Of a stretch of DNA of 64,000 bases, positions 2,831 through 31,551 are shown one piece after another (position 1 is the first letter of the stretch; every line of letters starts with the position of its first letter). Location: contig JBJEPH010000108.1 of NCBI GenBank assembly GCA_051881135.1, positions 59,728-123,727 on the forward strand. The letters run 5' to 3'. The notes beneath the pieces were generated by a model that saw nothing but the letters and a program-made list of their open reading frames with translations, was not told where the DNA came from and did not search any database. The DNA is from Eubacterium sp. GTDB lineage: Bacteria > Bacillota > Clostridia > Oscillospirales > Acutalibacteraceae. The translations under genes were made by a program, and so were the position numbers.

Positions 2831-5143
2831 TTATTCGAATTTTATGCTTGAAGATGTCGATTTACACGAATAATATGTCTTTCCCGATAGCGTTTTATAC
2901 TGCTCAATGCAATAGTAATAGGTTTTACCTTTTTTAACATTTTTGTCCGTAAATGAAGTAGATGTGCCGGATTTAACGGTTTTGTAAAGTTCGTATGATG
3001 CGGACTTTGATGTTTTTCTGTAAATTCTGTATCCCGTTGCATAATCGGATTTTACCCAAGAAACCTTAATTGACGATGCCTGCTTTGTAAGCTTAGGAGC
3101 CGACATTTTTGGAGGCAGGGCTCTCTTTTTAACTATGTCCGAATATCCGCCTGCACCGAATGCGTTTTTACCGCAAACCTTAAACTCATAATATGTGCCG
3201 AGCTTTAAGCCCGAAACATTAGCCGAGGAATTTGAGGTAACGCAGGCAGTTTTAAAGGCTGTTTCTCCCGATTTGCGATAAAGCAGCTTATAGGAGGAAG
3301 CAAGCGGATCCTTGCTCCACGAAACCGTTATGGCTGTGTTTGCCTTGCTGACAGCCTTAACATTTTTTATGCTTTCAATTTTTATTTTTACTCCGTTACT
3401 TTGCTTATCTGCTCCGTAAAAGGCATTGCCGTCAACTATTACATAGCGCTTAACCCTGTAATAATAGGTTTTGTTGTATGAGATATCCTTGTCCAAATAC
3501 TTATCAACGGCTTTATCTTCAATTTGAGCAAGCTTGGTGTATATGCCGTCGGCAGATGATGAACGGTAAATTATATATCCCGTTACATCGCTTCTTGTAG
3601 GATAGCTTATTTCTATACCGCTTTTAGTCGGCGCAGTATTGACATATGACGGGGTGGGAGGCAGACATTTTTTATTTATCACAGAATAATCGCTGCATCC
3701 AACGGCATTTGCTCCTGCGACCTTGCAGGTATAGCTTTCGCCTACGGTTAAGCCCTTAACATTAACGCTTAAATCCGTGGTTTCGCCCGAAGCGACAGCC
3801 TTTCCCTTGCTGTCGGTTACGGAATATATAAATCTGTCAACAATTGGATTATCGGGAAAGGAAAGCTTTAGTCCCGTGGTTGACGAACGGTTTACGGTTA
3901 ATTCGGGAGCGGAAATCATATAGGTACACGATACGACAGGCGACGCATTTGAATAAGAATACGGAGATACGGACTTATATGCATCTACCCTGTAATAATA
4001 TTTTTTGCCGTATTGTGCCGCCTTATCAAGACATTCCGAGGTGTCGGGATTTGTTAGCTGCTTTATTCTTTTATATGTTCCGTCCTTTGTTTCGCTTCTG
4101 TAAACATAATAGCCTGTACAATCGGCGCTCGGCGTCCACCTAAGAATAATTCCGTTTTTATCAAGCGACGGCTTGAGTGATTTTACGGCAGGCGGTAACG
4201 CCTTAATTGTTTTAACGCTTGAGAAGCTGCGCCACTTTCCGTTTACATATGCACGAGCCTTCAGATTATATTCGGAGCCTGTTTTTAGATTTGTTATTGA
4301 ACAGCTTGTCTTTGTTATGCTGTTTGACAGGACCTTATAATCCTTATCATCTGCTTTTTTATATCTAACCTCGTATTTTTCTGCGCCTATAATGGATTTC
4401 CAGCTTACAGAAAGAGAGGTTGAGGTTTTGTTTGAGGCAGACAAAACGGGTATGGTAGGTCCTACCTGATTGTAGATATCAAGATATTTACTGTATCTGT
4501 TGATGGTTATGCCCAGTCCGCCGCTTTTCATTTTGTTGTAGAAAATGGCGTTAAGGGATATCATATTTCCGTTTGAGTTATACTGCGTTTTGGTTGGATT
4601 TTCAAGAAAGCTTGACCATATAATATTATCGATATGGCAGGAGCTTCTCGGGTAATCCGCAGTTTCGTAATTTGAATGATAGATTTGCATTTTGTCGGTA
4701 TCCACACTTTGAATCATAAAGGTGTGGGTAGCAGAATTTGAGCTTGAGCTTGTAAGAGTTCCGTAATGAATAACATCACCCGGCATTGCGTTAGTCATAA
4801 AGAAATTCATAATATCCTTCGCCGAAGCGCTTGTCATAGAGGATGATGTGTTTTTGTAGGTTGCAACGGTATAGTAATTGCCTGAGGAATGGGTGCACAT
4901 ATAGTTGCCGTGCAGTCCCTCGCCGTTATATCCGACGCCGTACAGCTTTTCGCAAACAGCAGAGATAAAGCCATAGCAGTTGTTTGTTACTTTGGCAGTT
5001 TTTCCGGGGATAAAGCCCGTGGTTGTTTGTATTTTTTTAAGAGCATCAAGTGCATTGATTTTATCAGCGGAATATGCAGTAACCGAGCATAAGCCCGTAA
5101 CAAGCATAACGGCGGAAAGCAATAGGGAAATTACCTTTTTCAA
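2831..5143 (-). CDS. Secreted multidomain protein: signal peptide, papain-fold (CHAP/NlpC-P60-like) Cys-His domain, and about six fibronectin type III repeats
   Basis: 770 aa. Signal peptide is MKKVISLLLSAVMLVTGLCSVTAYSA. The putative catalytic Cys is in NNCYGFISAV and the His is in GDVIHYG...ATHTFMIQS. FN3-like units recur in the form W....GA.KYEV.YK / GY.IYRS....YYY.V.AY. Confidence 0.8.
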   Translation of the reverse strand: MKKVISLLLSAVMLVTGLCSVTAYSADKINALDALKKIQTTTGFIPGKTAKVTNNCYGFISAVCEKLYGVGYNGEGLHGNYMCTHSSGNYYTVATYKNTSSSMTSASAKDIMNFFMTNAMPGDVIHYGTLTSSSSNSATHTFMIQSVDTDKMQIYHSNYETADYPRSSCHIDNIIWSSFLENPTKTQYNSNGNMISLNAIFYNKMKSGGLGITINRYSKYLDIYNQVGPTIPVLSASNKTSTSLSVSWKSIIGAEKYEVRYKKADDKDYKVLSNSITKTSCSITNLKTGSEYNLKARAYVNGKWRSFSSVKTIKALPPAVKSLKPSLDKNGIILRWTPSADCTGYYVYRSETKDGTYKRIKQLTNPDTSECLDKAAQYGKKYYYRVDAYKSVSPYSYSNASPVVSCTYMISAPELTVNRSSTTGLKLSFPDNPIVDRFIYSVTDSKGKAVASGETTDLSVNVKGLTVGESYTCKVAGANAVGCSDYSVINKKCLPPTPSYVNTAPTKSGIEISYPTRSDVTGYIIYRSSSADGIYTKLAQIEDKAVDKYLDKDISYNKTYYYRVKRYVIVDGNAFYGADKQSNGVKIKIESIKNVKAVSKANTAITVSWSKDPLASSYKLLYRKSGETAFKTACVTSNSSANVSGLKLGTYYEFKVCGKNAFGAGGYSDIVKKRALPPKMSAPKLTKQASSIKVSWVKSDYATGYRIYRKTSKSASYELYKTVKSGTSTSFTDKNVKKGKTYYYCIEQYKTLSGKTYYSCKSTSSSIKFE

Positions 5144-5211: not shown

Positions 5212-7140
5212 TTATTTAACTAAGAACGAGTGGACATTGCCACAGTTATCAAAGGAATAAATATAGTCGCCGATATAGGTAATTCTTGAATTGCCGAAAT
5301 AATCTTCATCATTTACCTGATAGTCAAAGCTGCACTTTTCCTGAATTTCATCACCGTTTACGCTAAAGACAACCGCACCTGCATTGTAATCTGCGTCATC
5401 CATCGGAATTGCCATATAATCCTTTGCTTCGTTTATGATGAGCGCCTTTGGATTATACTGTGCTTCGGAATACATATCCCTATAAACCCTGGAATCGAGT
5501 ACCTTTGGCTTTTGCGGATTTGAAATATCAAACAGTGCAAGCTTTATTCCGGATATATATTCCATATCCGAATCCTCTACGCTGTCGGTTGCATTGCCTA
5601 TGCCGAGAAGCCTGTTATCGCCTATCGGGATAAGCATTGTTGAAAAGCCCGTGATTTTAACGCTTCCCTTGATTTGCATATCCTTTGGATTTGAAATATC
5701 TATAACAAACAGAGGGTCGGTTTGCTTATAGGTTATAACATAGGCGTAATCGCCGATATATCTTACTGCTCTTACGGATTCGTCAGCGCCGAAGGACTCG
5801 GTTCTGCCTATTCTGTTAAGATTTTCGTCAAAGGCGTACAAATAGTTGTAATCCTTGCCGAGCTTAGTGTTTTGATTTGTAACACAGGCAAAAAATGTGC
5901 CGTCAATCTCGCTGAAGGAATACTGGCTGTCAAATCTGCCGTTGATTTTACAGCTCGGTCCGAATTCTACACCGTTGTCCAAATTGATTTTTGCAATAAA
6001 GGTTTTTTCGTTTACGCCGCTGTAATCGTTTCCGATAATATAAAGATGCTCGGTTGTGCAATAAACCTCTGAGCCTGCACCGATAACGGATTTTGTTTTG
6101 CCGATACGCTTGCCTTTTTTGGTGTCGATAGCCGAAACGACAGTAAAGTCATCGCCCTTACATTCGGTATATGCAATATCAGTTGGTTCGATGATACAGC
6201 TTGATTTTTCATTTTCCGAATAGGACGGCATTATGGTATCATCTATGACATAATTTTTATCATAGTAGTAATTATTGTAGCCATAGTTTGAAACAAGATA
6301 AAGCGTATCACCTACCATACGGGAGGAGGCATAACCGCCCTTTTGAGCGAAGCTATATACCTTTTTGGGATTATATACATCGCTTATATCGTAAACAAGA
6401 CATTCCGTTTGCGCAGTTTCGCCTATATCCTTGTCATAATAAAAGCTATTTGCTTGTGCAACAAGCCTGTCGCCTTTAATATAGAAATCCATAATATTTC
6501 TTGAAATGTACTTGCTTGCGTTATTATTGTAGCTTGTTTTGAAGCTTATTTTGCCAACCTGCTTTGTTTTTCCGTCCTTGGCTTCAAAAATAGCGATATA
6601 GGATTCGGAATAATCATCCTTCCATACCTCGCAGGATTTATAGATATATTTTCCGTCGGTTTTTATTGTATCAGCCTCATCAACATCCTTTTCCTGAAGA
6701 TAGGTTTCGCCGTGATTAACCTCTGTTGAGCTTCCGTATGCTGAGTCGGCAGCACTTTCCTCTATGCTATCCGCACCCTTATTTGTGTATAAGCCAAGGC
6801 CAAACGCAAAATTGCTTTTATTATCCTTTATTATTTTTTCAACATATTCGTTCAGCTCGTCCTCACTGCCGAAGGTTTGCATAACGGCAGGCTGAGAGCC
6901 CTGCGTCTTATTGTTAAGCACTCTCTCGCTGTCGGCAATTTTCACGGCTGAGAAGCTTGCAACAAAAACGGCAAAGCATGCGGCAAGGCTTACTATCGCT
7001 TTAAATGCTCTTGTTTTTACGAAAGGAATTTTTTTGCGAGGGCTGTCGAGCTTTTGAAAAACCTTTTTGTCAAGCCCGTCGGGGACCTGCAAATTTGCAT
7101 TATCAAATTTTTCCTTAAGATATTCAAAATCGTTATTCAT
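5212..7140 (-). CDS. Single-pass membrane protein with a large extracytoplasmic beta-propeller domain; putative anti-sigma or sensor partner of the upstream ECF sigma
   Basis: 642 aa. It has a short cytoplasmic N-terminus, one TM (AIVSLAACFAVFVASFSAVKIA), then repeated beta-strand-rich units as in PF09826-type beta-propeller proteins. Its start is 4 nt after the sigma-factor stop. Confidence 0.75.
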   Translation of the reverse strand: MNNDFEYLKEKFDNANLQVPDGLDKKVFQKLDSPRKKIPFVKTRAFKAIVSLAACFAVFVASFSAVKIADSERVLNNKTQGSQPAVMQTFGSEDELNEYVEKIIKDNKSNFAFGLGLYTNKGADSIEESAADSAYGSSTEVNHGETYLQEKDVDEADTIKTDGKYIYKSCEVWKDDYSESYIAIFEAKDGKTKQVGKISFKTSYNNNASKYISRNIMDFYIKGDRLVAQANSFYYDKDIGETAQTECLVYDISDVYNPKKVYSFAQKGGYASSRMVGDTLYLVSNYGYNNYYYDKNYVIDDTIMPSYSENEKSSCIIEPTDIAYTECKGDDFTVVSAIDTKKGKRIGKTKSVIGAGSEVYCTTEHLYIIGNDYSGVNEKTFIAKINLDNGVEFGPSCKINGRFDSQYSFSEIDGTFFACVTNQNTKLGKDYNYLYAFDENLNRIGRTESFGADESVRAVRYIGDYAYVITYKQTDPLFVIDISNPKDMQIKGSVKITGFSTMLIPIGDNRLLGIGNATDSVEDSDMEYISGIKLALFDISNPQKPKVLDSRVYRDMYSEAQYNPKALIINEAKDYMAIPMDDADYNAGAVVFSVNGDEIQEKCSFDYQVNDEDYFGNSRITYIGDYIYSFDNCGNVHSFLVK

Positions 7141-7144
7141 AATA

Positions 7145-7654
7145 CTACTCCAAAAATTCTCTCATTTTAGTTAGTGCTCTGGATTGCTTGGACCTAACTG
7201 CACCGGCAGTATATCCCGTTGCCTTTGCTATTTCCTTGCTTGTAAAGCCTGCTACAACCGACAAAAGCACAATTTCTCTTTCCTGCTCGTTCAGCCTTGA
7301 CAGCGCTTCGCGCAATTCCAGCGATAATTCCGTGCAGATATCGTTACAGGGAATTTCAAAATCGTCGATATTTTCTTCCTCTCTGCGCTTGACAACCGAT
7401 TTTAAATATTTGTTGCAGCTTGCAGAATGTATGGAAAACAACCAGGAGGAAAAAGCCTTGGGCGATTTCAGCCTGCTTATCTGCTCAAAGGCAGATAAAA
7501 CCGTGTCCGATACCGCGTCCATAGCATCCTCGCTGTTTCCGATTTTGTACCAAGCGTAATGATACAGTCTGTCCCTATACATTTTATACAGACACACAAA
7601 CGCATCTCTGTCGCCCTGCTTGGCTTTTATAACATAATCCGAGTAATCCATCAT
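7145..7654 (-). CDS. ECF-type sigma-70 family RNA polymerase sigma factor
   Basis: The region 2 motif is DAFVCLYKMYRDRLYHYAWYKIGNSEDAMDAVSDT. The region 4 HTH is REIVLLSVVAGFTSKEIAKATGYTAGAVRSKQSRALTKMR. The AGAGGTG RBS favours ATG at 7654 or 7651 over the ORF-track start at 7678. Confidence 0.9.
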   Translation of the reverse strand: MMDYSDYVIKAKQGDRDAFVCLYKMYRDRLYHYAWYKIGNSEDAMDAVSDTVLSAFEQISRLKSPKAFSSWLFSIHSASCNKYLKSVVKRREEENIDDFEIPCNDICTELSLELREALSRLNEQEREIVLLSVVAGFTSKEIAKATGYTAGAVRSKQSRALTKMREFLE

Positions 7655-7751
7655 TTCACCTCTTTTGAGATATCTCATAAGTATAGTATAAAAAAATCGT
7701 CAAAGTGTTGCAATAAAAATATATAAATTGTTTTTTAAAGCAGACAAACAA

Positions 7752-7779
7752 AAAACGGACTTTGATGAAAGTCCGTTTT
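7752..7779 (-). terminator. Intrinsic terminator after leuS
   Basis: ACGGACTTT-CATC-AAAGTCCGT hairpin followed by TTTTTTGTTTG on the minus strand. Confidence 0.7.
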
Positions 7780-7789
7780 TGCGTAAGGT

Positions 7790-10198
7790 TTATATTGCGA
7801 CAATATTTACAAGCTTTCCGGGAACATAAATTTCCTTTTTGATTTCCTTGCCTGCGATAAGCTCGGCAATTTTGGAATCGGCCTTTGCAAGTGCAATAGC
7901 CTCGTCCTTTGAAATATCAACCGGAACAGTGATTCTTGAACGAACCTTACCCATAACCTGTAAAGCAATTTCTATGCTGTTTTCCTTAGTCTTTTCCTCG
8001 TCATATTCGGGCCACTTTGCCTCGCTGACCATACCGCCGTAGTTCATAACCTCCCACATTTCTTCGGTTACATGCGGTGCAAACGGGTTAAGGAGAATAG
8101 TTAAGGTTTTCAGCTCTTCCCTGTTACAGCCCTTTTGAGTCATTTCGTTTACAAGAGTCATCATAGCGGCAATAGCCGTATTAGCCTTAAGATTGTCGAT
8201 ATCCTCGGAAACCTTCTTGATTGTTTTATGAATTAATGCCTCAAGCTCGGCGGAATAAGAGTCGCCGTCAACAACACTTTCCTGAAGATTCCAATATTTT
8301 TCGATAAATCTCTTACAACCCTTAATTGAGTCGGAGTTCCAAGGAGCAGCCTTTTCGAAATCGCCGATAAACATTTCGTAAAGACGCATTGTATCGGCAC
8401 CGTAGGTGTCAACAATTTCATCGGGATTTACAACATTGCCCCTTGATTTTGACATCTTCTCGCCGTTCTCGCCCAAAATCATACCGTGAGAGGTTCTCTT
8501 TTGGTATGGCTCGGGATTTGGAACTACGCCGATATCATAAAGGAATTTATGCCAAAATCTTGAATAAAGCAGGTGGAGGGTTGTATGCTCCATACCGCCG
8601 TTATACCAATCTACCGGAGCCCAATAATTTACAGCCTCTTTAGAAACTAATTCCTTATCGTTATGAGGATCCATATATCTGAGGAAATACCAGGATGAGC
8701 CTGCCCACTGCGGCATAGTATCCGTTTCTCTCTTTGCAGGAGCGCCGCAGCACGGACAGGTTGTATTAACCCAATCCGTCATCTTTGCAAGCGGTGATTC
8801 TCCCGTTTCCGTAGGCTCATAGGACTCAACATTAGGAAGCGTCAACGGAAGCTCGCTTTCCGGAAGCGGAACATATCCGCACTTATCACATTTTACGATA
8901 GGAATAGGCTCGCCCCAATATCTCTGGCGTGAGAATACCCAGTCGCGAAGCTTGAAGTTAACCTTTTGGTGTCCCTTGCCCTCTTTTGTAAGCCATTCTG
9001 TAATGGCAACCTTTGCTTCCTCTACGGACATACCTGTAAGGAAGGAGGAATTTGTCATAACGCCTGTTGCGCAATCGGTAAACGGTTCGTTTTCCACACC
9101 GACCTCGCTTCCCTTAACTACCTCGATGATAGGCAAATCAAATTTCTTTGCAAATTCCCAGTCACGGGTATCGTGGGCAGGTACAGCCATAATTGCACCT
9201 GTACCGTAGGAAACAAGAACATAGTCGGAGATGAAAATAGGAATTTCCTTATCATTTACAGGATTGATGCCCTTTACGCCCTGAAGCATAACGCCTGTTT
9301 TACCCTTATTAAGCTCTGTACGCTCAAAATCGGATTTATGGGCGGCTTCGTCCTGATAAGCACGAACCTCGTCAATATTTGTGATGCTGTCCTTCCACTT
9401 TTCGATAAGAGGATGCTCGGGCGCAATAACCATATATGTAGCGCCGAACAGTGTGTCGGGACGGGTTGTGTAAACCGTAAGTGTATCGCCGAGCGTTGTG
9501 CAGAAATCAACCTCTGCGCCTGTTGAACGGCCAATCCAGTTGCGTTGCTGTGTTTTAACTCTGTCGATAAAATCAACGGTATCCAAATCCTTAACAAGTC
9601 TGTCGGCATACTCTGTAATTTTGAGCATCCACTGACTCTGGTTTTTACGGATTACCTCGCTTCCGCAACGCTCGCAAACGCCGTTTACAACCTCCTCGTT
9701 TGCAAGAACGCATTTGCAGGAGGTGCACCAGTTTACAGCCATTTCCTTCTTATATGCCAAGCCCTTTTTGAAAAGCTGTAAGAAAATCCACTGTGTCCAC
9801 TTATAGTATGACGGGTCGGTAGTATTTACCTCTCTTGTCCAATCAAAAGAGAAGCCGAGAGACTGAAGCTGTGACTTAAAACGGGCAACATTGTTTTTTG
9901 TTACCTCAGCAGGATGGATATGATTTTTAATTGCAAAATTCTCTGTCGGAAGTCCGAAGGCATCCCAGCCCATAGGATAGAGAACATTGTAGCCCTCCAA
10001 GCGCTTTTTTCTTGCTACGATATCCAAAGCGGTATATGACCTTGGGTGTCCTACATGAAGTCCCTGTCCCGACGGATACGGAAACTCAACCAGGCAATAA
10101 AACTTTGGCAGAGAATAGTCGTCCTTTGCGGCAAATGTGTTTTGGGTGTACCACACATTCTGCCATTTTGATTCGATTTGTTTAAAATTATATTCCAT
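7790..10198 (-). CDS. leuS: Leucyl-tRNA synthetase
   Basis: 802 aa. Contains the HVGH (HIGH-type) and KMSKS motifs and the editing domain. [16 protein letters not shown] is a typical LeuS N-terminus. Confidence 0.98.
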
Positions 10199-13801: not shown

Positions 13802-16800
13802 CTATGCTTCAAGTCCCATTTGGGAGGCGAGCTCCGTTGATTGAAGCTCAAGCAGCTTTGAAACGCCCTTTTCCTGCATTGTTACGCCGTAAAGAACATC
13901 AGCCTCCTCCATTGTGCCGCGTCTGTGGGTTATGGATATAAACTGTGTTTTATCGGTCATCTTGCGCATATATTTTGCAAATCGCTCAACATTTACATCG
14001 TCAAGCGCAGCCTCAACCTCGTCATAAATACAAAACGGTGACGGTGTAACCTTTAGCACGCTGAACAGCAGAGCCATAGCTGCAAGTGATTTTTCACCAC
14101 CGGAGAAAAGGTTAATATTCTGTACGGATTTTCCGGGTGGCTGAATTTTGATTTCAATAGCGGACTCCAAGCAATTTGCAGGGTCCTCAAGAATTATTTC
14201 GCCGTTGCCTCCGCCGAAGAAATCTGCAAAGGAAACCTTGAACTCTGCATTAATCTTATTAAACTGCGTCATAAACTTTTCGCTCATTGAAACAGTTAAA
14301 TCCTCGATAATCTTGGCAAGCTCTCTCTTTGAGGCTTCAATATCGCTTATCTGCTCCTTAAGGAATTCGTATCTCTCGGATACCTCCTTATATTCCTCAA
14401 TGGCTCCTACATTGATGGATCCGAGCTTTTTGATTTCCACCTTTATCTCGTGCAGGCGCTTTTTAGCCTCTGCCATATCCTCGATAACTATGCCCAGAGC
14501 CTCCGCCTCGGGCTTTGTTAATTCATACTGCTCAAACAGCATATCGCCAAGCTCGTCGTATTCCTTTTTCATATTAGCCTTGCGCTCTTCAAATCTAACA
14601 AGGTCGCCCGAAAGCTTTTCCTTGTCGCCGTTTAAGGATTTTTCTTTTAGGCGAAGCTCGTTTGTTTTCTTTTCAAGCTCGTTTCTGTTTTCGATTTCAT
14701 CCTTAATTGAATCGCTGACAGCCTGAGCCTTTGAACGAAGCTCGTCTGCCTGAGCCTTAACCTCGGCAATGGTTTGATTTAGCAGCTCGTTTTTAGCCTT
14801 AATTGCGTTAATTTCATCGTTGATTGTACGAACCCTGTCGCTTTGAGTGCTCTTGCGCAAATTTAGCTCCTCGATGGCAAGCCTTGCAGCCTCGGTATCC
14901 TTTGTAAGCGTAACAAGCTCAAGATTGATTTCCTCGGTCTTTTTGCGAATTGCTTCTCTCTTTGCGGCAAGCTCCTCTGCACCTACGCTGACAGAGCTAA
15001 GCTCCCTTTCGCAATCTGCCATTTGCTTTTCGATATCTGCACATTCTTTTTCGGCATTTTTGCCTGCCTGCTCGAACAAAAGAATTCTGCCGTCACTGTT
15101 TTCCTGTTCGCGAAGCATAGCCTGAAGCTGATTTTCCAATGATGAAAGCTTGTCCTCGATAAGCTTATGCTCGCCCTGTGCACGAATAAGCTCCTCGTTT
15201 GCGTTTCTTAAATCGGCATCTGCGCCCTGCAGGTCGGCACCTGCAAGATTTGCATCCTCGACTGCCTTCTTTAATCTTGCATTTGCTTCTTCAAGCTCTG
15301 CCTTAATCTTCTGTGCCTCGCCTGTAAGCTCTTCAATTCGGTTGGCTCTTGAAAGCACTCCTGCACCCTTTGCTCGCGAGCCGCCCGTCATAGATCCTCC
15401 GGGGTTCATAACCTGTCCGTCAAGGGTTACGATTTTATATTTGTTGTTATATCTTTTTGCAATACCGATAGCGCAATCGATATCCTCAACAACCATTACC
15501 CTGCCGAGAAGATTGTCAATAATATCTCTGTATTTATCATCACATTCTACCAAATTGCCTGCAATATCGATAAATCCGAAATTGTCGTCAAGATTTTTTT
15601 CCTCCATATGTCTTGGCTTGATGTTTGATATCGGAAGAAATGTAGCACGGCCTGCATTGTTTTGCTTAAGATAAGCCATAGCGCGCTTACCGTCGCTTTC
15701 GGTTGACACAACTATGTTTTGCATAGCCGCACCGAGAGCAACCTCGACAGCCGTTGAATATTCGTTTTCAACGCTGATAAGCTGTGACAGAGTGCCGTGA
15801 ATGCCCGAAAGGGCTTTACTTTGGCTCTGCTTTAATACAGCCTTAACCGCACCCGAAAAGCCCTCCATATTTTTTTCCAAATCGGAAAGCATACGAGCCT
15901 TTGACTCTTTTTCGTTTAATTTTCTTGAAAGCGCTTCAACCTCATCCTTAACCCTTTCGGCCTTTTCTGTTTTAGACTGAAGCTTTAAGCGATAGCCGTC
16001 CATAGAATTATTATATTCGGCTATTCTTTCGTTGATAAACTTAATGTTTTCGTCACTTTCTTCCTTTTGTGAAGCGATATATTCTATATCCTTTTTGAAC
16101 GCCTCAATTTGCTCGCTTATGGTATCCTTGCGTGCATTGATTTCATCAATTGAGGTTTGTGCCTGCGACATCTTAACCTTACATTCCGATTGCTGAATGG
16201 TTAAGTTTGTCAGCCTTTGGTTTAGCTCAACGGTTTTGTCCGACATTTCGAGGTTTTCGTTTTGCACCTCTGCAAGCTCGTTTGCAACGCTTTCAAGCAT
16301 AGCCTTTTTTTCGACGGTTGCCTGCTCGTTTTGCGAAATAAGCTCCTGCTTTGCCGAAATTTGTCCGTCGATATCAATTCCGTTATTGTCAGCCTCGCTG
16401 ATATCGGAGGCAAGTCTTTCTATGGTTTCGTTATTATGCTCTAATTTTGTGTTATATACCCTGATTTCACCGTCACGGCGCAGAGCCTCCTCCTCGTAGC
16501 CTGTTGCGCTTAGTCTGCTCTGCTCGATAGCAAGATTAATCGAGGTGATTTTCTCCTGTGTTTCATTAAGAAGATTTTCAACCTCCTGCAAGTCCCTCTC
16601 GCTCATTTGATAGGAGGCTCTTGTGGCGTCGATTTTGTGCTCATGCTCTCTTAAATCGGTTGTAAATTTATTGATTTTATTAAGCCACACGCCGATTTCG
16701 AGGGTTTTCTTTTCTTCGGAAAACACCAAAAACTGCTGTGCCTTTTCGCTCTGCTTTTTCAGAGGACCTACACGGTTTTCAAGCTCTCCGAGAATGTCAA

Positions 16801-25649: not shown

Positions 25650-26378
25650 ATGCCATATTACGATATAGCGGGGCTAAAGGTTAAAATTAATAATTGCGGC
25701 GGCAGAACACAAAAGCAGGCAATACCGTATTTATCCGAAAACCAGGATGAAAGCCAAATACCCGATATTGACATCGTTGTTGATGAAAGCAGAGTTAAGG
25801 AGGCTATGGCTGAGCATCCCGAGCTTAATCAGGACGATTGGGAATATATGATAACGGGAAGCGATTTTTACGGCAATCTCGTTAGCTTTGACGGCTTTCT
25901 TCTTCACTCCTCCTGCATAGTCGTTGACGGAGTTGCTTATGCCTTTTCGGCGGACAGCGGAACAGGAAAATCAACGCACACACAGCTATGGCTCAAAAGA
26001 TTCGGCGACAGAGCATATATGCTAAACGACGACAAGCCTGCATTGAGAATCATAGACGGCAAGCCATATGCCTGCGGTACTCCGTGGAGCGGAAAATACG
26101 ATTATTCAACCCCTGCGGTTGTGCCCTTGGGCGGCATTTGCTTCCTTGAGAGAAGCGAGGATAACTGGATTAAGCCTGCCGAAACAAGCAAGGCAATCTT
26201 CAATATTTTCAGCCAAACCGTTCGACGCTTCGGTGCAGGCAGAATGAATATGCTTATGGATAATGTAAACGAAATGTTTAAGCTTGTACCCATCTACTCA
26301 TTAGGCTGTAACATATCCGACGAAGCAGTTGATTGCTCATATAACGCAATGAAAAGAGATATAAATGAAATACTGTAA
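25650..26378 (+). CDS. Uncharacterised P-loop protein resembling the HprK/P C-terminal kinase-like fold
   Basis: 242 aa. Contains LHSSCIVVDGVAYAFSADSGTGKSTHTQLW followed by NDDKPALR...GTPWSGK. This is my pattern recognition only; no search was run. Confidence 0.6.
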   Translation: MPYYDIAGLKVKINNCGGRTQKQAIPYLSENQDESQIPDIDIVVDESRVKEAMAEHPELNQDDWEYMITGSDFYGNLVSFDGFLLHSSCIVVDGVAYAFSADSGTGKSTHTQLWLKRFGDRAYMLNDDKPALRIIDGKPYACGTPWSGKYDYSTPAVVPLGGICFLERSEDNWIKPAETSKAIFNIFSQTVRRFGAGRMNMLMDNVNEMFKLVPIYSLGCNISDEAVDCSYNAMKRDINEIL

Positions 26379-27151: not shown

Positions 27152-27191
27152 AAAGCACCGCCAATGACAATAATGTCATTGGCGGTGCTTT
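27152..27191. terminator. Strong bidirectional intrinsic terminator
   Basis: An 18-bp perfect stem, AAAGCACCGCCAATGACA / TGTCATTGGCGGTGCTTT, with an ATAA loop. It is flanked by TTTTTGAAAA on one side and CTGTTTT on the other. It separates convergent genes. Confidence 0.8.
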
Positions 27192-27222
27192 CTGTTTTAA
27201 TACAATATTACCGTTTTTATTA

Positions 27223-28017
27223 TTAAGCTTCCTCATCCTCTTGAAAGACGATTATTTTATACGGAGCATCTAATTTGAATACAACTTCAGTTGTGTAAGC
27301 TTTACCATCAAATTTTATAATATAATCGCAAATACGGTTTCCGTCCATATCATAATTGTCGTACATTATATCATCAGCCAAATTATCCCATATTTCCTTG
27401 TCTGAATTAATATCAACATTGAAAAGTGTGTAATTTGTTCCGCTTTCGTTTGCTTCACATTCAATATTAATACAATATATATTACTTGTTCCCTGTTCAC
27501 ACAAAACGGCAATATTTCCGAATTCGTATCTTGTATATTCTTCGATATCCAAAGTATCGTTGCTTTCTTCTCCAAGCACTTGCTTTACTTTGTCAAGGCT
27601 ATAAAATAAATCAGTTATTTCAACAGCTTCATTCAGCACATTGGTGCTTTCTTCTGTTGCAAATGTCTTTTCTGTTGTTGGGTTTACTTTAGATGCGGTA
27701 TCATCACTGTCGGTTACGGCAAAAACTATCATTAAGGCGATATAAATAGCCACTATTGCAACGATTGAAAACAAGATTATTTTTTTAGCTCTCTTTAATT
27801 TTGGTTTGATTTTTTCTTTAGTTTCTGCCTTCTTTTTTTCTCTTAATTCCCTTCTTTCATCTGATTTTGAAATAATCGTATTTAAACCATCTTCTATTAT
27901 TTGTGAAGTGCTTTTTTCTATTTTTTGCTTTTCGCCGCAATATTCGCATATTGCATAAGAATTTGTTTCATCAATTTCCATTGTTCCGCCGCAGTTTTTA
28001 CACTTTAATTCAGACAT
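27223..28017 (-). CDS. Single-pass membrane protein: N-terminal cytoplasmic zinc ribbon, Lys/Glu-rich linker, TM helix, acidic extracytoplasmic domain
   Basis: 264 aa. Contains KCKNCGGTMEIDETNSYAICEYCGEK, then RRELREKKKAETKEKIKPKLKRAKK, then the TM IILFSIVAIVAIYIALMIVFAV, then an acidic domain of about 160 aa. An AGAGGAG RBS is present. The gene lies 14 nt after the upstream gene. Confidence 0.75.
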   Translation of the reverse strand: MSELKCKNCGGTMEIDETNSYAICEYCGEKQKIEKSTSQIIEDGLNTIISKSDERRELREKKKAETKEKIKPKLKRAKKIILFSIVAIVAIYIALMIVFAVTDSDDTASKVNPTTEKTFATEESTNVLNEAVEITDLFYSLDKVKQVLGEESNDTLDIEEYTRYEFGNIAVLCEQGTSNIYCINIECEANESGTNYTLFNVDINSDKEIWDNLADDIMYDNYDMDGNRICDYIIKFDGKAYTTEVVFKLDAPYKIIVFQEDEEA

Positions 28018-28031
28018 ACAAATACTCCTCT

Positions 28032-28715
28032 TTACTTTAATAATTTACACTTTTGATTTCTGTCATTTATCAAAATCAGCAAATCGTTTGAAATATCCGT
28101 TGCAAGATTTATATTATCGTCAATTACAGCTTTTTCAAGTTCCTTAAATTTAATCGTTATTGAAGACTCAGCAGCTGCAAGGGCATCATTGCTCATAGGG
28201 TCACTGTAACGAACAGCTTCATATACACTGTAAGCTATTTCTTTGATTTCCTCACTTTTTGCTTTCATCATAAGTGTTTGAGCATCAACTGTCAGAGATT
28301 TTATAAAGAAAGTTTGAGCTTTTAACTTTGTTTCAGTTTTTTCTATTGTACCAATAGCCATATTTGTGCTTACAATTGCTATTATATCAAATGCTGTAAC
28401 TATTACAGATATTGTAACCGCAATCCAAACAGGTAAGTTAGGAACGGCAATAAAAACAGTTGAAAAAATCAGTGAAACAAAAAGTGCAATATAGCTTATC
28501 GTAAGTAAAGGAATATTTAAAAACACTTTATCCTTTATTTCCTGCTTAAAAAATATGTAACTACATACCAATTGAACAATAAACATAGCAACAACAAATA
28601 TGTATCCTACCCAAAAAGAGCCTATCTTTTCTGACGGTGAAACAAATGTGATAATACTGAATGCAACAATTGAAACAGTCCAAATTATTAAATATAAGTT
28701 AAAATTCTTTTTCAT
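28032..28715 (-). CDS. Polytopic membrane protein (4-5 TM) with a C-terminal helical cytoplasmic domain of about 100 aa
   Basis: 227 aa. The hydrophobic segments are IIWTVSIVAFSIITFV, VGYIFVVAMFIVQLVCSYIFF, LLTISYIALFVSLIFSTVFIAV and VWIAVTISVIVTAFDIIAIV. The tail reads ...YEAVRYSDPMSNDALAAAESSITIKFKELEKAV... Confidence 0.72.
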   Translation of the reverse strand: MKKNFNLYLIIWTVSIVAFSIITFVSPSEKIGSFWVGYIFVVAMFIVQLVCSYIFFKQEIKDKVFLNIPLLTISYIALFVSLIFSTVFIAVPNLPVWIAVTISVIVTAFDIIAIVSTNMAIGTIEKTETKLKAQTFFIKSLTVDAQTLMMKAKSEEIKEIAYSVYEAVRYSDPMSNDALAAAESSITIKFKELEKAVIDDNINLATDISNDLLILINDRNQKCKLLK

Positions 28716-28859
28716 ATTAATTCCAATAGCCTTTCCGGCTACAAATAGTTTATAAAATAATTTCTATCGCCTTATTGTAGCCATATAAGGCGCATAATAA
28801 AGATTTTGAGTTCAATATAATCGAAACAGTGTGATTTTTCACACTGTATTCTGCTTGTT

Positions 28860-30269
28860 TTATAGCTTTTCTCCGCATTCAGGGCAGAATTTTGCTCCGT
28901 TAACTTCTGTGCCGCATTTTGAGCATATGCTTGAAAGTCTGAAACCGCATTCGGGACAGAATTTACCTTTTACGATGCTCTGTTTGCAATTCGGACAAAC
29001 AATTTTATTACTCAAATTTTCAATTTTTGTTCCGCATTCAAAACAGAATTTCGCATTATTAGGTACAACGGCACCGCAATTGTGACAGGTTACTGATGTG
29101 TTCTCATTATTGCTTGAGTTATCTGTATTTGAGTTATTTGCAAAATTGCTAAACATTCCGCTTAACTGACCACTCATAGCATTTGCAGCAGCCATGCCTA
29201 CACCGAGCCCCATTATATCGGACATCGGACTACTGCCACCGCCTCCAGAGCCGCCTGAACCCATATTGCCCAAACCCTTTGCAAATTCTTTTTGAACATC
29301 AGCTTGAATTATATCCTTTTCAGTATATCCCTTAGCTTTCATAACCTCCGCTTCAGCAAAGCCTTCAATTTTTGTTGAAGCAGCAGAGCCTTGGGATTCA
29401 ATTACCTGTCGTTCGGCCTTCCTTTTTGCAACCTCTGTTTGAGTTGTTTGCTTTTGGAGTTCTATTTCTCTTTCAGCGGCAGTAATTTCGGCCTTTGCTT
29501 TTGCTTGGGCAGACCGTACAGTCGCTTCTGCTTCTGCAATTTTTGTCTGAAATGATATTGTATGTAATTCACGGATTTTTTTAAAGTTTGGGTCCTCTTC
29601 GGGTAATACTACGGTTGTAATATAAAATTGAGGAATTGTCAGTCCGTATTCTTCAAAGCCTGAAATAATATTATTTTTTAATGCTGAAGACAGAATGTCA
29701 AGGTGGCTATCTATTTCAAGAATATCAATGTTTTCTGCAACAATTGTTTTTGATAGGTTTACCTTTACAGATGTAGATATAATTGGCTTGAAAGAGGCTT
29801 TAAGAGATTGTGTAAATTTGTTTCCTTCTTCATTCCATGCAATACCATTCATCGTTCCGACTAATTTAATTAGAAGCTTACGCGAATCTGACACTTGCAA
29901 ATTCAATTCTCCGCATGCACCTATTTCAAGCGGAACCCCTGTCAAGGGATCAATAAATCTAACTTTTGAATCCGTTCCCCATTTTAATCCCATTTGTACA
30001 GTTTTGTTAATAAAATACACTTCACAATGAAATGGTGATGTTCCCCCCGTCGTCGAATTTATGCTTTTCCCTATAAGAGGAATATTTTCAGTTTCAAGAG
30101 TATAACGACCCGGTCCGAACAAATCGAGTGCCTGTCCATTCATCATAAAAATTGCTTCCTGTGATTCGTGAACAATAAGTTGAGTTGAAGTATTGAAATC
30201 TTCACTTGGATGTTTCCATATAAATGTATTGTTGTCGCCTTCGTATTTAATTAAATCGGTAATTTTCAT
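28860..30269 (-). CDS. SPFH/Band-7 domain protein (COG4260, YdjI-like) with a coiled coil, Gly-rich linker and four C-terminal zinc ribbons
   Basis: I chose the start at MKITDLIKYEGDNNTFIWKHPSEDFN, 8 nt after an AAGGAG RBS. The ORF-track start at 30326 has no RBS. The protein has an SPFH core, the Ala/Glu/Lys coiled coil AEAEATVRSAQAKAKAEITAAEREIELQKQ, the linker GSGGSGGGGSS, then CHNCG..CFECG, CPNC..CPECG, CSKCG..CPECG. There is no TM segment. Confidence 0.88.
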   Translation of the reverse strand: MKITDLIKYEGDNNTFIWKHPSEDFNTSTQLIVHESQEAIFMMNGQALDLFGPGRYTLETENIPLIGKSINSTTGGTSPFHCEVYFINKTVQMGLKWGTDSKVRFIDPLTGVPLEIGACGELNLQVSDSRKLLIKLVGTMNGIAWNEEGNKFTQSLKASFKPIISTSVKVNLSKTIVAENIDILEIDSHLDILSSALKNNIISGFEEYGLTIPQFYITTVVLPEEDPNFKKIRELHTISFQTKIAEAEATVRSAQAKAKAEITAAEREIELQKQTTQTEVAKRKAERQVIESQGSAASTKIEGFAEAEVMKAKGYTEKDIIQADVQKEFAKGLGNMGSGGSGGGGSSPMSDIMGLGVGMAAANAMSGQLSGMFSNFANNSNTDNSSNNENTSVTCHNCGAVVPNNAKFCFECGTKIENLSNKIVCPNCKQSIVKGKFCPECGFRLSSICSKCGTEVNGAKFCPECGEKL

Positions 30270-30313
30270 TAGTTGATATTCTCCTTTTATACAAATTAAC
30301 CAATCGTAATTAC

Positions 30314-30342
30314 ATATTACAACCATTTACTCGTTTTGTCAA
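30314..30342 (-). promoter_or_regulatory. Sigma-A type promoter of the SPFH gene
   Basis: On the minus strand: TTGACA, a 17-nt spacer, then TAATAT. The -10 ends 44 nt upstream of ATG 30269. Confidence 0.55.
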
Positions 30343-30355
30343 CGATATTATCGTT
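30341..30355. promoter_or_regulatory. Perfect 7-1-7 palindrome, candidate operator for the adjacent XRE regulator
   Basis: AACGATA-T-TATCGTT. It abuts and overlaps TTGTCAA, which reads as a -35 hexamer on both strands (TTGTCA on plus, TTGACA on minus). Confidence 0.45.
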
Positions 30356-30407
30356 TTTATTACAGTTTGTTAGTTTTATCCTTTAAAATGGCAGAGAGGT
30401 GATTTAA

Positions 30408-30749
30408 TTGAACTTTAGTGATAAATTACGCTGCCTTATTGAAGAACGAGGTTTAACACAGAAGCGTGTTGCTAATGACTTAAATATTGCCCCCTCAACT
30501 ATGGGTGGATATGTTCAGGGAAGCAGTGAACCGGATTTTGAAACCTTGAAGAGACTCGCATATTATTTTGATGTTTCAACTGATTATCTTTTAAATGTTA
30601 AATCAAGTAATTGTAACAGCTTTTCTGAGGATGAATTGTTGCGTGTTTTCCGCTCTATGACATCTGAGCAGCAAAAATTATATATTGAGCAAGGTAAGGT
30701 GTTTGTCCGCGCAAATGCTTCTAACATAGAAAATAAAAAATCATCTTAA
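30408..30749 (+). CDS. XRE-family helix-turn-helix transcriptional regulator
   Basis: 113 aa. The TTG start lies 5 nt after a GAGAGGTGA RBS. The HTH_3 motif is LRCLIEERGLTQKRVANDLNIAPSTMGGYVQGSSEPDFETLKRLAYYFDVSTDYLL. Confidence 0.85.
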   Translation: MNFSDKLRCLIEERGLTQKRVANDLNIAPSTMGGYVQGSSEPDFETLKRLAYYFDVSTDYLLNVKSSNCNSFSEDELLRVFRSMTSEQQKLYIEQGKVFVRANASNIENKKSS

Positions 30750-30790
30750 CAGATTTTAATAAGCATTAATATAATTTAACCATTAAAGTA

Positions 30791-30830
30791 AAAATGAAAG
30801 CGTCTCTCAAACGAGAAGCGCTTTCATTTT
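30791..30830. terminator. Bidirectional terminator between the XRE gene and sigK
   Basis: AAAATGAAAGCG...CGCTTTCATTTT hairpin with an inner TCTC/GAGA extension. A/T runs are present on both sides. Confidence 0.65.
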
Positions 30831-30867: not shown

Positions 30868-31551
30868 TTATGTTAGCTGTTTTCTTATATCGGCTAAAAC
30901 CTTTTTCTCTATGCGAGAAACATACGAACGGCTTATGTTCAGCCTGTCTGCCACTTCCCTTTGGGTGAGTGGCTTTTTGTTATCGAGTCCGTATCTAAGT
31001 ATTATTATTTCTTTCTCTCTGTCGTCGGGCATATCGTCAATAATTGCCTTGACCTGCTCCCAGCTTGTTTTGATTTCCAGCTCCTCTGCTATATCTCTTT
31101 CGTCGCTTACGATATCCTCTATTGTAAGCGGATTTCCGTCCTTATCCGTATCTATGGCATCGCCTAAAAAGACCTCGGAATTTTGTTTTTTAAGTCCTCT
31201 GAAATACATCAGTATTTCGTTTTCCACGCATCTTGCGGCATAGGTTGAAAGACGGGTGCCCTTGCTGTAATCAAACGAATCAACGGCCTTAATAAGACCT
31301 ATTGTGCCTATTGAGATGAGGTCATCCGAGTCGTTGGTTTTTGAATAATATTTTTTTACAATATGACTGACAAGACGCAGATTTCTTTCTATCAATACCC
31401 CACGGGCATTCTCGTCGCCGTTTGCCATTTTCTCGATATATTCCTTTTCCTCTTTTTTTGAAAGAGGCTTTGGAAAGCCCGAGCCGTTTTGGATATGAAG
31501 AATGAACAAAAGCAGGTTTGCGCCTATTGCGCTAAGCAGTGTCGAAAACAT
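30868..31551 (-). CDS. sigK: Sporulation sigma factor K precursor (pro-sigma-K), uninterrupted
   Basis: 227 aa. It has a hydrophobic pro-sequence, MFSTLLSAIGANLLLFILHIQNGSGFPKPLS. This is followed by KKEEKEYIEKMANGDENARGVLIERNLRLVSHIVKKY...DLISIGTIGLIKAVDSF...KGTRLSTYAARCVENEILMYFR. The gene is stand-alone, with no spoIIGA or sigG nearby, which favours SigK over SigE. Confidence 0.85.
   Translation of the reverse strand: MFSTLLSAIGANLLLFILHIQNGSGFPKPLSKKEEKEYIEKMANGDENARGVLIERNLRLVSHIVKKYYSKTNDSDDLISIGTIGLIKAVDSFDYSKGTRLSTYAARCVENEILMYFRGLKKQNSEVFLGDAIDTDKDGNPLTIEDIVSDERDIAEELEIKTSWEQVKAIIDDMPDDREKEIIILRYGLDNKKPLTQREVADRLNISRSYVSRIEKKVLADIRKQLT

Follow-up and report, generated by a model that had tools for sequence, protein, structure and literature searches.

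The DNA analysed here is a 64,000-nucleotide (nt) stretch from Eubacterium sp. (GCA_051881135.1, contig JBJEPH010000108.1), which we call the window and to whose positions all coordinates refer unless a locus is named. Its subject is an AT-rich island at 27152-30830 with four genes: one for an XRE-type regulator (XRE113) and, divergent from it, an operon for an SPFH-domain protein (SPFH469), a protein with four transmembrane (TM) helices (TM227) and a zinc-ribbon membrane protein (ZnTM264). We propose, with a probability of roughly 55%, that the SPFH protein and TM227 form a membrane module widespread in Clostridia, of which the island is a copy that moves horizontally, and that this module is likely the core of a conflict system and not a phage shock protein (Psp) system. 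The pair would most likely act as the membrane-proximal sensing or scaffolding core of such a system, of the anti-phage or abortive-infection type.

The first support comes from the distribution of the pair. No fewer than 587 species-representative genomes, the great majority from Clostridia, contain a relative of the SPFH protein, and we compared gene neighbourhoods in 80 of the SPFH-bearing species genomes together with metagenome loci (labels beginning with L denote loci). In 61 of 74 species loci (phmmer, 70 of 84 loci), the gene directly 3' of the SPFH gene, in the same orientation, is that of TM227, so for these two genes the question raised in the initial annotation, whether the genes of the island travel together, can be answered with yes. 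TM227 also belongs to a large family: a word index returned 2,319 homologues, all of them unnamed, and a full profile search 3,096 representative clusters (50% identity), 2,031 of these at E<=1e-10. Both membrane proteins of the island had been taken for orphans; this does not apply to TM227, and ZnTM264 alone is lineage-restricted, with only five homologues.

The second line of evidence is the slot downstream of TM227, which is variable among species. In 27 of the 54 loci with enough downstream DNA, the gene next after TM227 encodes a member of a cluster of zinc-ribbon neighbour proteins (c2; 86 proteins at 53 loci), mostly after a gap of 13-40 nt, and in 24 of these 27 cases the protein carries a TIR domain. 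At least one zinc-ribbon–TIR protein was found at 48 of 74 loci. The N-terminal ribbon of c2 is common with ZnTM264; it has a fixed length of 32 amino acids (aa) in 62 of 72 proteins, a mean identity of 50% to that of ZnTM264, and the consensus xKCKMCGGxLxxxExxTVxxCEYCGTxQTxPx. Most c2 proteins are large and consist of the zinc ribbon, TPR, TIR_2 (with WxxxE kept), TPR, a TM helix and then either leucine-rich repeats (LRR) of the BspA type (LRR_5) or DUF6273. The predicted topology would place the TIR domain inside and the LRR outside the cell, a layout like that of Toll-like receptors. Zinc-ribbon–TIR proteins can be seen, for example, at L007 5536-8265, at L026 9130-13119 and twice at L013 (2964-5990 and 9128-12013).

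Other genes that intervene in the slot often overlap the stop codon of TM227, an arrangement suggestive of translational coupling. Four of them, with HEPN, SIR2 or DUF4365 matches, are listed in Table 1, and some encode unknown proteins. The two core proteins are also found in fusions: a Ser/Thr kinase is joined to the SPFH protein at L024 (5666-8356, 896 aa) and to TM227 in P0306, which has a zinc ribbon in addition, and in P0345 (662-684 aa), and a TetR_N domain is joined to the SPFH protein at L017 (1838-3847, 669 aa; P0036 and P0048). The kinase and TetR fusions point to signalling. Further TM227 variants have RCC1 repeats at the C terminus (P0250), a trypsin-like protease (P0285) or Flg_new repeats (P0377).

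We favour a conflict or defence role because the slot holds TIR, SIR2, HEPN and restriction-endonuclease-like proteins, because of the fusions to kinase and helix-turn-helix (HTH) domains, and because of the mobility described below; judged from gene content, a defence role of the module is plausible but unproven. The strongest argument is the presence of TIR, SIR2, HEPN and DUF4365 proteins in the slot of other species, and the window cassette is without these. Going further, SPFH (Band_7_1) plus TM227 might be the core of an uncatalogued Clostridial immune system with swappable third components (TIR/LRR, SIR2, HEPN or nuclease-like), recruited through the 32-aa zinc ribbon or through coupling to TM227, with the window cassette as a mobile, repressor-controlled minimal version that is carried on sigK-associated elements. 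This more specific proposal is tentative, and we consider the odds to be somewhat against it.

A number of points weigh against the conflict reading in general. Neither TIR, SIR2, HEPN nor any other recognisable effector is encoded in the window cassette, and no TIR paralogue is present elsewhere in the window. PADLOC-DB v2 gave no match for SPFH469, TM227 or the zinc-ribbon–TIR proteins of the other loci. Gene calls at the loci are mechanical open reading frames; c2 was built by single linkage and is joined largely via the zinc ribbon and TIR, and the TIR domain was assigned by motif in most c2 members and by Pfam in five only. It may be that zinc-ribbon–TIR proteins are no more than paralogues that abound in Clostridia, the putative SPFH–TM227 and zinc-ribbon–SPFH contacts are read from gene order only, and a pspA gene may lie elsewhere in the genome, beyond the window that was searched.

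As to whether the system is already catalogued, the suggestion of the initial annotation that it may not be agrees with the lack of a specific PADLOC match among the four proteins, and our literature searches on SPFH, COG4260 or PF13421 in phage defence found no description of an SPFH–TM227 module. Zorya (ZorAB) and Kiwa (KwaAB), together with the TIR and SIR2 NADase effectors known from Thoeris, are examples of membrane-anchored defence and of swappable effectors. The island and its relatives resemble such systems in having a conserved membrane-associated core beside variable genes of TIR, SIR2, HEPN or nuclease type, at a locus that is patchy, mobile and AT-rich. Unlike them, the module has no sequence kinship to the PADLOC v2 models, its core combines an SPFH protein with a new 4-TM family, the window copy is without an enzymatic effector, and its role in defence is putative.

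The component with the best-known relative is SPFH469, which can be classed as a soluble YdjI-type, COG4260-like SPFH protein. The mechanical open reading frame extends to 30326; the start was set at 30269 (MKITD) on the basis of homologues and of an identical 469-aa protein at NCBI ("MAG: SPFH domain-containing protein [Eubacterium sp.]"). The SPFH domain (residues 23-225) is followed by an Ala/Glu/Lys-rich coiled coil (~235-330), a Gly/Ser/Met-rich linker and zinc ribbons (395-465), and no hydrophobic segment scores >=1.6. The earlier description of a soluble SPFH protein with coiled coil and linker thus stands, except that the 12 invariant Cys residues make up three C-terminal zinc ribbons and not four. 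A subclade of the family at about 52% identity to SPFH469 (L063, L064, L067, L072, L073, L079 and L083) has an N-terminal extension of ~125 aa with four further CxxC…CxxC zinc ribbons and weak matches to YdjG.

To our knowledge, YdjI is the only Band_7_1 SPFH protein that has been studied, and it is known as a PspA adaptor. In B. subtilis, PspA, YdjG, YdjH and YdjI belong to the sigma-W regulon (Scholz et al. 2021, PMC8581546; Ravi et al. 2024, PMC11237479). There, PspA is connected to the membrane by YdjI, which itself depends on the membrane proteins YdjG and YdjH to get to the membrane (PMC8581546). We obtained sequences of the B. subtilis type from metagenome contigs, which were scanned for the ydjH primer given by Scholz et al. 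(PMC8581546); this led to contig L109, in which the primer sequences of ydjG, ydjH and ydjI are present together with genes for PspA, YdjG, YdjH and YdjI. The YdjI of this contig matches Band_7_1 with 8.3e-43, is 23% identical to SPFH469 over the 228-aa SPFH domain (E 2e-16, BLASTP), and shares with it a Gly/Met-rich linker and a terminal zinc ribbon that is 52% identical, which upholds the initial assignment of SPFH469 to the YdjI type.

This kinship makes a Psp-type envelope-stress module the first alternative to be weighed: SPFH469 would recruit a distantly encoded PspA/IM30 to damaged membrane, and TM227 and ZnTM264 would be non-homologous replacements of YdjH and YdjG. Apart from the shared subfamily and architecture of the two soluble SPFH proteins and the function of YdjI, it is favoured by the zinc ribbon of ZnTM264, the Cys spacing of which is that of YdjG; at either locus the SPFH gene is accompanied by genes for two membrane proteins, and one of these proteins starts in such a ribbon. 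The first ribbon of YdjG has the spacing of the 32-aa c2 ribbon and is the only part of YdjG that aligns with ZnTM264 (40% over 30 aa). The rest of the comparison reads differently. In YdjG, two N-terminal ribbons precede a cytoplasmic domain and the TM helix is C-terminal, whereas ZnTM264 has one ribbon, a TM helix in mid-protein and a 165-aa ectodomain, and its model gave no Foldseek match to an NTF2/YpeB-like domain, the kind of domain reported for YdjG. YdjH is a TPM-domain protein (TPM_phosphatase, 3.1e-23), to which TM227 is evidently unrelated (hhalign probability of the TM227 profile against YdjH, 0.3%), the partner in the YdjH position being a 4-TM helical protein instead. SPFH469 exceeds YdjI by a coiled coil of ~100 aa and two ribbons, the gene order of the island is reversed, and an XRE gene is found in place of sigma-W control. 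The YdjGHI-like trio that had been proposed is not, or at most weakly, supported.

Neither the 64-kb window nor the neighbourhood of the module in ~90 loci from many species contains a PspA gene, as had been noted earlier for the window (zero matches with jackhmmer and E. coli PspA and with phmmer and B. subtilis-type PspA), and phmmer with YdjH likewise found no TPM/YdjH gene there. Judged by membership, the island is not a Psp system, since of four defining features only the SPFH protein is present. Instead of PspA, the conserved neighbours are TIR, HEPN, SIR2 or DUF4365 proteins, and a mobile cassette of foreign composition would be unusual for a core stress system. Taken together, we regard a Psp-type function as unlikely.

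As a rule, SPFH proteins build oligomeric scaffolds at membranes, and the module could be just that, a general scaffold or quality-control device of the kind of HflK/C, flotillins or stomatin that takes no part in conflict, for which the TIR/LRR proteins would be surface-signalling clients or unrelated neighbours. The family is indeed found very widely among Clostridia of gut and rumen, and a sequence search of the PDB with the SPFH profile returned, besides zinc-ribbon matches, faint matches of the coiled-coil part to Erlin (E 0.08-0.15). Like HflK/C-FtsH, the flotillins FloA/FloT and QmcA/stomatin, SPFH469 has a coiled coil behind its SPFH domain and presumably assembles into oligomers beneath the membrane. 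Unlike these, it has no TM helix or hairpin of its own, belongs to Band_7_1 and not to Band_7 (PF01145), and has neither a protease nor NfeD as a partner; at the sequence level, it could not be matched to any solved structure. A general scaffold also fits poorly with a neighbourhood in which no housekeeping partner is seen, with a variable slot of effector-type domains, with the overlap between several slot genes and the stop codon of TM227, and with a cassette that is patchy and mobile among close relatives, so that we consider this explanation improbable, more so than a Psp-type function.

The mobility of the cassette, on which the conflict reading draws in part, is seen in its composition and its surroundings. 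Windowed GC, a check that had been proposed in the initial annotation, amounts to 0.31-0.35 in the island versus 0.42-0.47 in the flanks, with an exception of 0.414 at 29000-29499 within the SPFH gene. GC content at third codon positions (GC3) is 0.26, 0.23, 0.29 and 0.29 in the four island genes versus 0.435 +/- 0.032 in 41 other genes of the window, that is, at least 4.5 standard deviations lower. Close relatives (76-82% SPFH identity) have the cassette in differing contexts. Loci L001-L004 have the order sigK, XRE, SPFH, TM227, zinc-ribbon–TM2, Zn267 and a 157/169-aa gene, and are, up to and including sigK, collinear with the window (74% DNA identity). In L089/L090 the cassette is located between HD/ABC and MgtE genes, and a 67-aa HTH_26 regulator replaces XRE. 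In L087/L088 it is part of a ~10-kb element that splits sigK at a point corresponding to window position ~31220 (Table 1). The GC3 of the cassette is 10-20 points below that of its flanks in L002, L087 and L089. Because of the low GC3, the differing contexts and the cargo position in the sigK-splitting element of L087, we regard the cassette as mobile and compositionally foreign. The AT-richness and the horizontal acquisition that had first been suggested by eye are thus borne out, and the cassette is not syntenic throughout the related genomes.

Among 50,697 phage records there was one weak partial match, and among 2.9 million IMG/VR contigs six loci; PHROG gave no match to the SPFH domain, TM227 or ZnTM264 and only weak matches to the zinc-ribbon/coiled-coil part of SPFH469 (best 8.4e-05). 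An origin as a prophage gene was rejected, the cassette being nearly absent from phage collections. Plasmids contributed a single case of 40% identity, the 20-kb Butyrivibrio fibrisolvens plasmid pNP21 (L085), where the SPFH gene (6700-7881) is surrounded by a restriction S subunit, a recombinase and a YoeB/RelB toxin-antitoxin pair, with no TM227 annotated alongside.

The element of L087/L088 resembles the skin elements of Bacillus and Clostridioides in being inserted in sigK and carrying a large serine recombinase, whereas in the window sigK is intact and the cassette lies just 3' of it, with no recombinase, replication (Rep) gene or attachment-site (att)-like repeat. That the four genes are an inert leftover of such an element, decaying cargo without function in the present host, would agree with the Rep and recombinase genes in L087/L088, with the position next to an intact sigK and with the absence from the window of the zinc-ribbon–TM2 and 118/169-aa genes of the relatives, but is very improbable, as all four reading frames are intact with good start sites, no residue that is invariant in the family alignment is changed in SPFH469, and the sigK–XRE–SPFH junction is shared with a species at only 74% DNA identity, which argues for retention.

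The borders of the island are two hairpins that fold on either strand and are accompanied by A/T runs (Table 1). Folding energies confirm them as the strong bidirectional terminators that had been described, and, since each lies between convergent genes, they are ordinary terminators of these genes. No att-like direct or inverted repeats longer than 9 nt were found at either island border. The flanking genes were correctly named before, with topA, dprA and a SpoU/TrmH methylase gene on one side and sigK on the other; a DUF4430 lipoprotein gene adjoins the left hairpin. Rfam gave only chance-level matches to hairpins in the region 26.5-31.8 kb, and tRNA genes are absent from the window. A 242-aa protein encoded at 25650-26378 has a P-loop-like GTGKST motif and no Pfam match at E<=1e-5; its GC3 of 0.47 is host-like, which puts it outside the island.

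For TM227, an AlphaFold model (predicted local distance difference test, pLDDT, 82) shows four TM helices, at the lower end of the four to five proposed earlier, and the helical cytoplasmic tail. In the model, TM4 is prolonged as a long helix (96-151) and followed by a cytoplasmic bundle of three helices. TM227 has no match in Pfam, NCBIfam, PADLOC or PHROG, and a Foldseek search of its model against the PDB gave no credible match (best E 0.12, TM-score <0.31). The spacer between the SPFH469 and TM227 genes is structured and longer in the window than in relatives; it contains a hairpin (28826-28847) directly past the SPFH stop codon, and may serve as an internal attenuator or else represent a small insertion.

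ZnTM264 has the layout that the initial annotation had given it, namely a cytoplasmic zinc ribbon (the 32-aa ribbon, residues 4-35), a Lys/Arg/Glu-rich helix as charged linker, one TM helix (80-98) and, behind a disordered Ser/Thr/Asp stretch, an acidic alpha+beta ectodomain (130-260) with 38 D+E versus 11 K+R. In the model (pLDDT 72), the TM segment is contained in the long charged helix. The best Foldseek match was 4h0a (E 0.01), followed by PsbP/DcrB-like folds (E 0.05-0.2); the matches are too weak for naming a fold. Its only PADLOC-DB v2 match, a weak one of low complexity to PD-T4-6 (1.7e-4), was read as compositional, caused by the Lys/Glu linker and TM helix, and rejected as an identity. 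Relatives carry two successive zinc-ribbon genes (L002 10130-10677, L089 11130-11656), the first for a 129-aa zinc-ribbon–TM2 protein and the second for a zinc-ribbon–TM–ectodomain protein. In the window there is a single zinc-ribbon gene, the 5' end of which (27889-28047) aligns to both genes of the relatives, consistent with a deletion between two ribbon-coding repeats.

XRE113, correctly described before as a 113-aa XRE HTH protein on the plus strand, has a Cro/C1-type HTH (residues 1-65) and a 45-aa tail. It scores 54 bits against the phage_RstR subfamily (cutoff 80 bits) and has only generic HTH matches in PADLOC, PHROGs and NCBIfam. Upstream of the SPFH gene we found a sigma-70-type promoter-like site, the -35 hexamer of which is kept in L002, and a perfect palindrome (AACGATATTATCGTT) that shares two bases (30341-30342) with this hexamer and could plausibly be the XRE operator. 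Only 12 of 79 loci have a divergent HTH gene, which is of two unrelated types. XRE was therefore rejected as a defining component, and the dedicated XRE repressor of the initial annotation does not characterise the family. The regulator has been exchanged between cassettes with 76-82% identical SPFH proteins, which have either a 112/113-aa XRE or an unrelated 65-67-aa HTH_26 regulator (L087 8659-8859, L089 8664-8867, L005 6670-6867), each type with its own promoter/operator region.

Returning to the proposal of a conflict-system core, the parts could work together as follows. XRE113 would bind the palindrome at the -35 hexamer and hold the operon off. Once the operon is on, SPFH469 would oligomerise via its coiled coil beneath the membrane and be anchored there by TM227, in the role that YdjH and YdjG have for YdjI. 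The 32-aa zinc ribbon would be a tag by which slot proteins dock on the SPFH platform, and their ectodomains would sense something at the envelope. Anchor and tag are suggested by analogy, because YdjI needs both YdjG and YdjH. The window copy would then be a minimal one, in which no enzymatic effector can be recognised.

Table 1. Features of the island, its borders and comparison loci. Positions refer to the window unless a locus is named; dG, folding free energy; z, z-score; REase, restriction endonuclease.
Feature	Position	Strand	Characteristics
Left border hairpin	27152..27191		18-bp stem; dG -32.1 (+) / -34.5 (-) kcal/mol; z -9.1 / -10.1; between convergent DUF4430 lipoprotein gene (+) and ZnTM264 (-); bidirectional intrinsic terminator
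ZnTM264	27223..28017	-	weak Zn_Ribbon_TF match (Pfam)
TM227	28032..28715	-	4 TM helices, helical tail
SPFH469–TM227 spacer	28716..28859	-	144 nt, structured; dG -38.7, z -5.8; 8-12 nt in relatives
SPFH469	28860..30269	-	Band_7_1 1.4e-37; DZR/Zn_ribbon (Pfam)
Sigma-70-type promoter-like site, SPFH operon	30314..30342	-	TTGACA, 17 nt, TAATAT; 10/12 matches
Candidate XRE operator	30341..30355	.	perfect palindrome, AACGATA-T-TATCGTT; partly kept in L002
XRE113	30408..30749	+	TTG start; HTH_19 1.6e-11, HTH_3 1e-9
Right border hairpin	30791..30830		dG -21.9 / -20.2; z -6.9 / -5.9; between convergent XRE (+) and sigK (-); bidirectional terminator
sigK (context only)	30868..31551	-	intact, 227 aa; NF004471 SigK 294 bits (cutoff 252 bits)
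Slot gene	L015 9113-9724		RiboL-PSP HEPN
Slot gene	L069 5012-6061		SIR2_2
Slot gene	L036 9096-9611		DUF4365; PADLOC match to Argonaute-associated REase, 3e-9
Slot gene	L081 7198-7779		weak HEPN (pEK499_p136) match
L087 element	L087 3966-14603		Sigma70_r2 fragment 3966-4334; Sigma70_r4 fragment 14262-14603
L087 element genes			HTH_19 protein, REP_ORF2-G2P replication protein, 374-aa TM protein, HTH_26/SPFH/TM227/Zn268 cassette, 118-aa protein
L087 element recombinase			578-aa large serine recombinase adjoining the 3' sigK fragment

The island and its relatives show that an SPFH protein of the YdjI kind can occur with no PspA at the locus, paired with an unnamed 4-TM family and often accompanied by TIR, SIR2 or HEPN proteins. 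The link to sigK-splitting elements suggests that the cassettes ride on elements which are excised in sporulation. If the pair is indeed a sensor or scaffold for effectors, bacterial immunity would gain a class based on membrane scaffolds, and a gene pair that is very common in gut and rumen Clostridia would be given a testable function.

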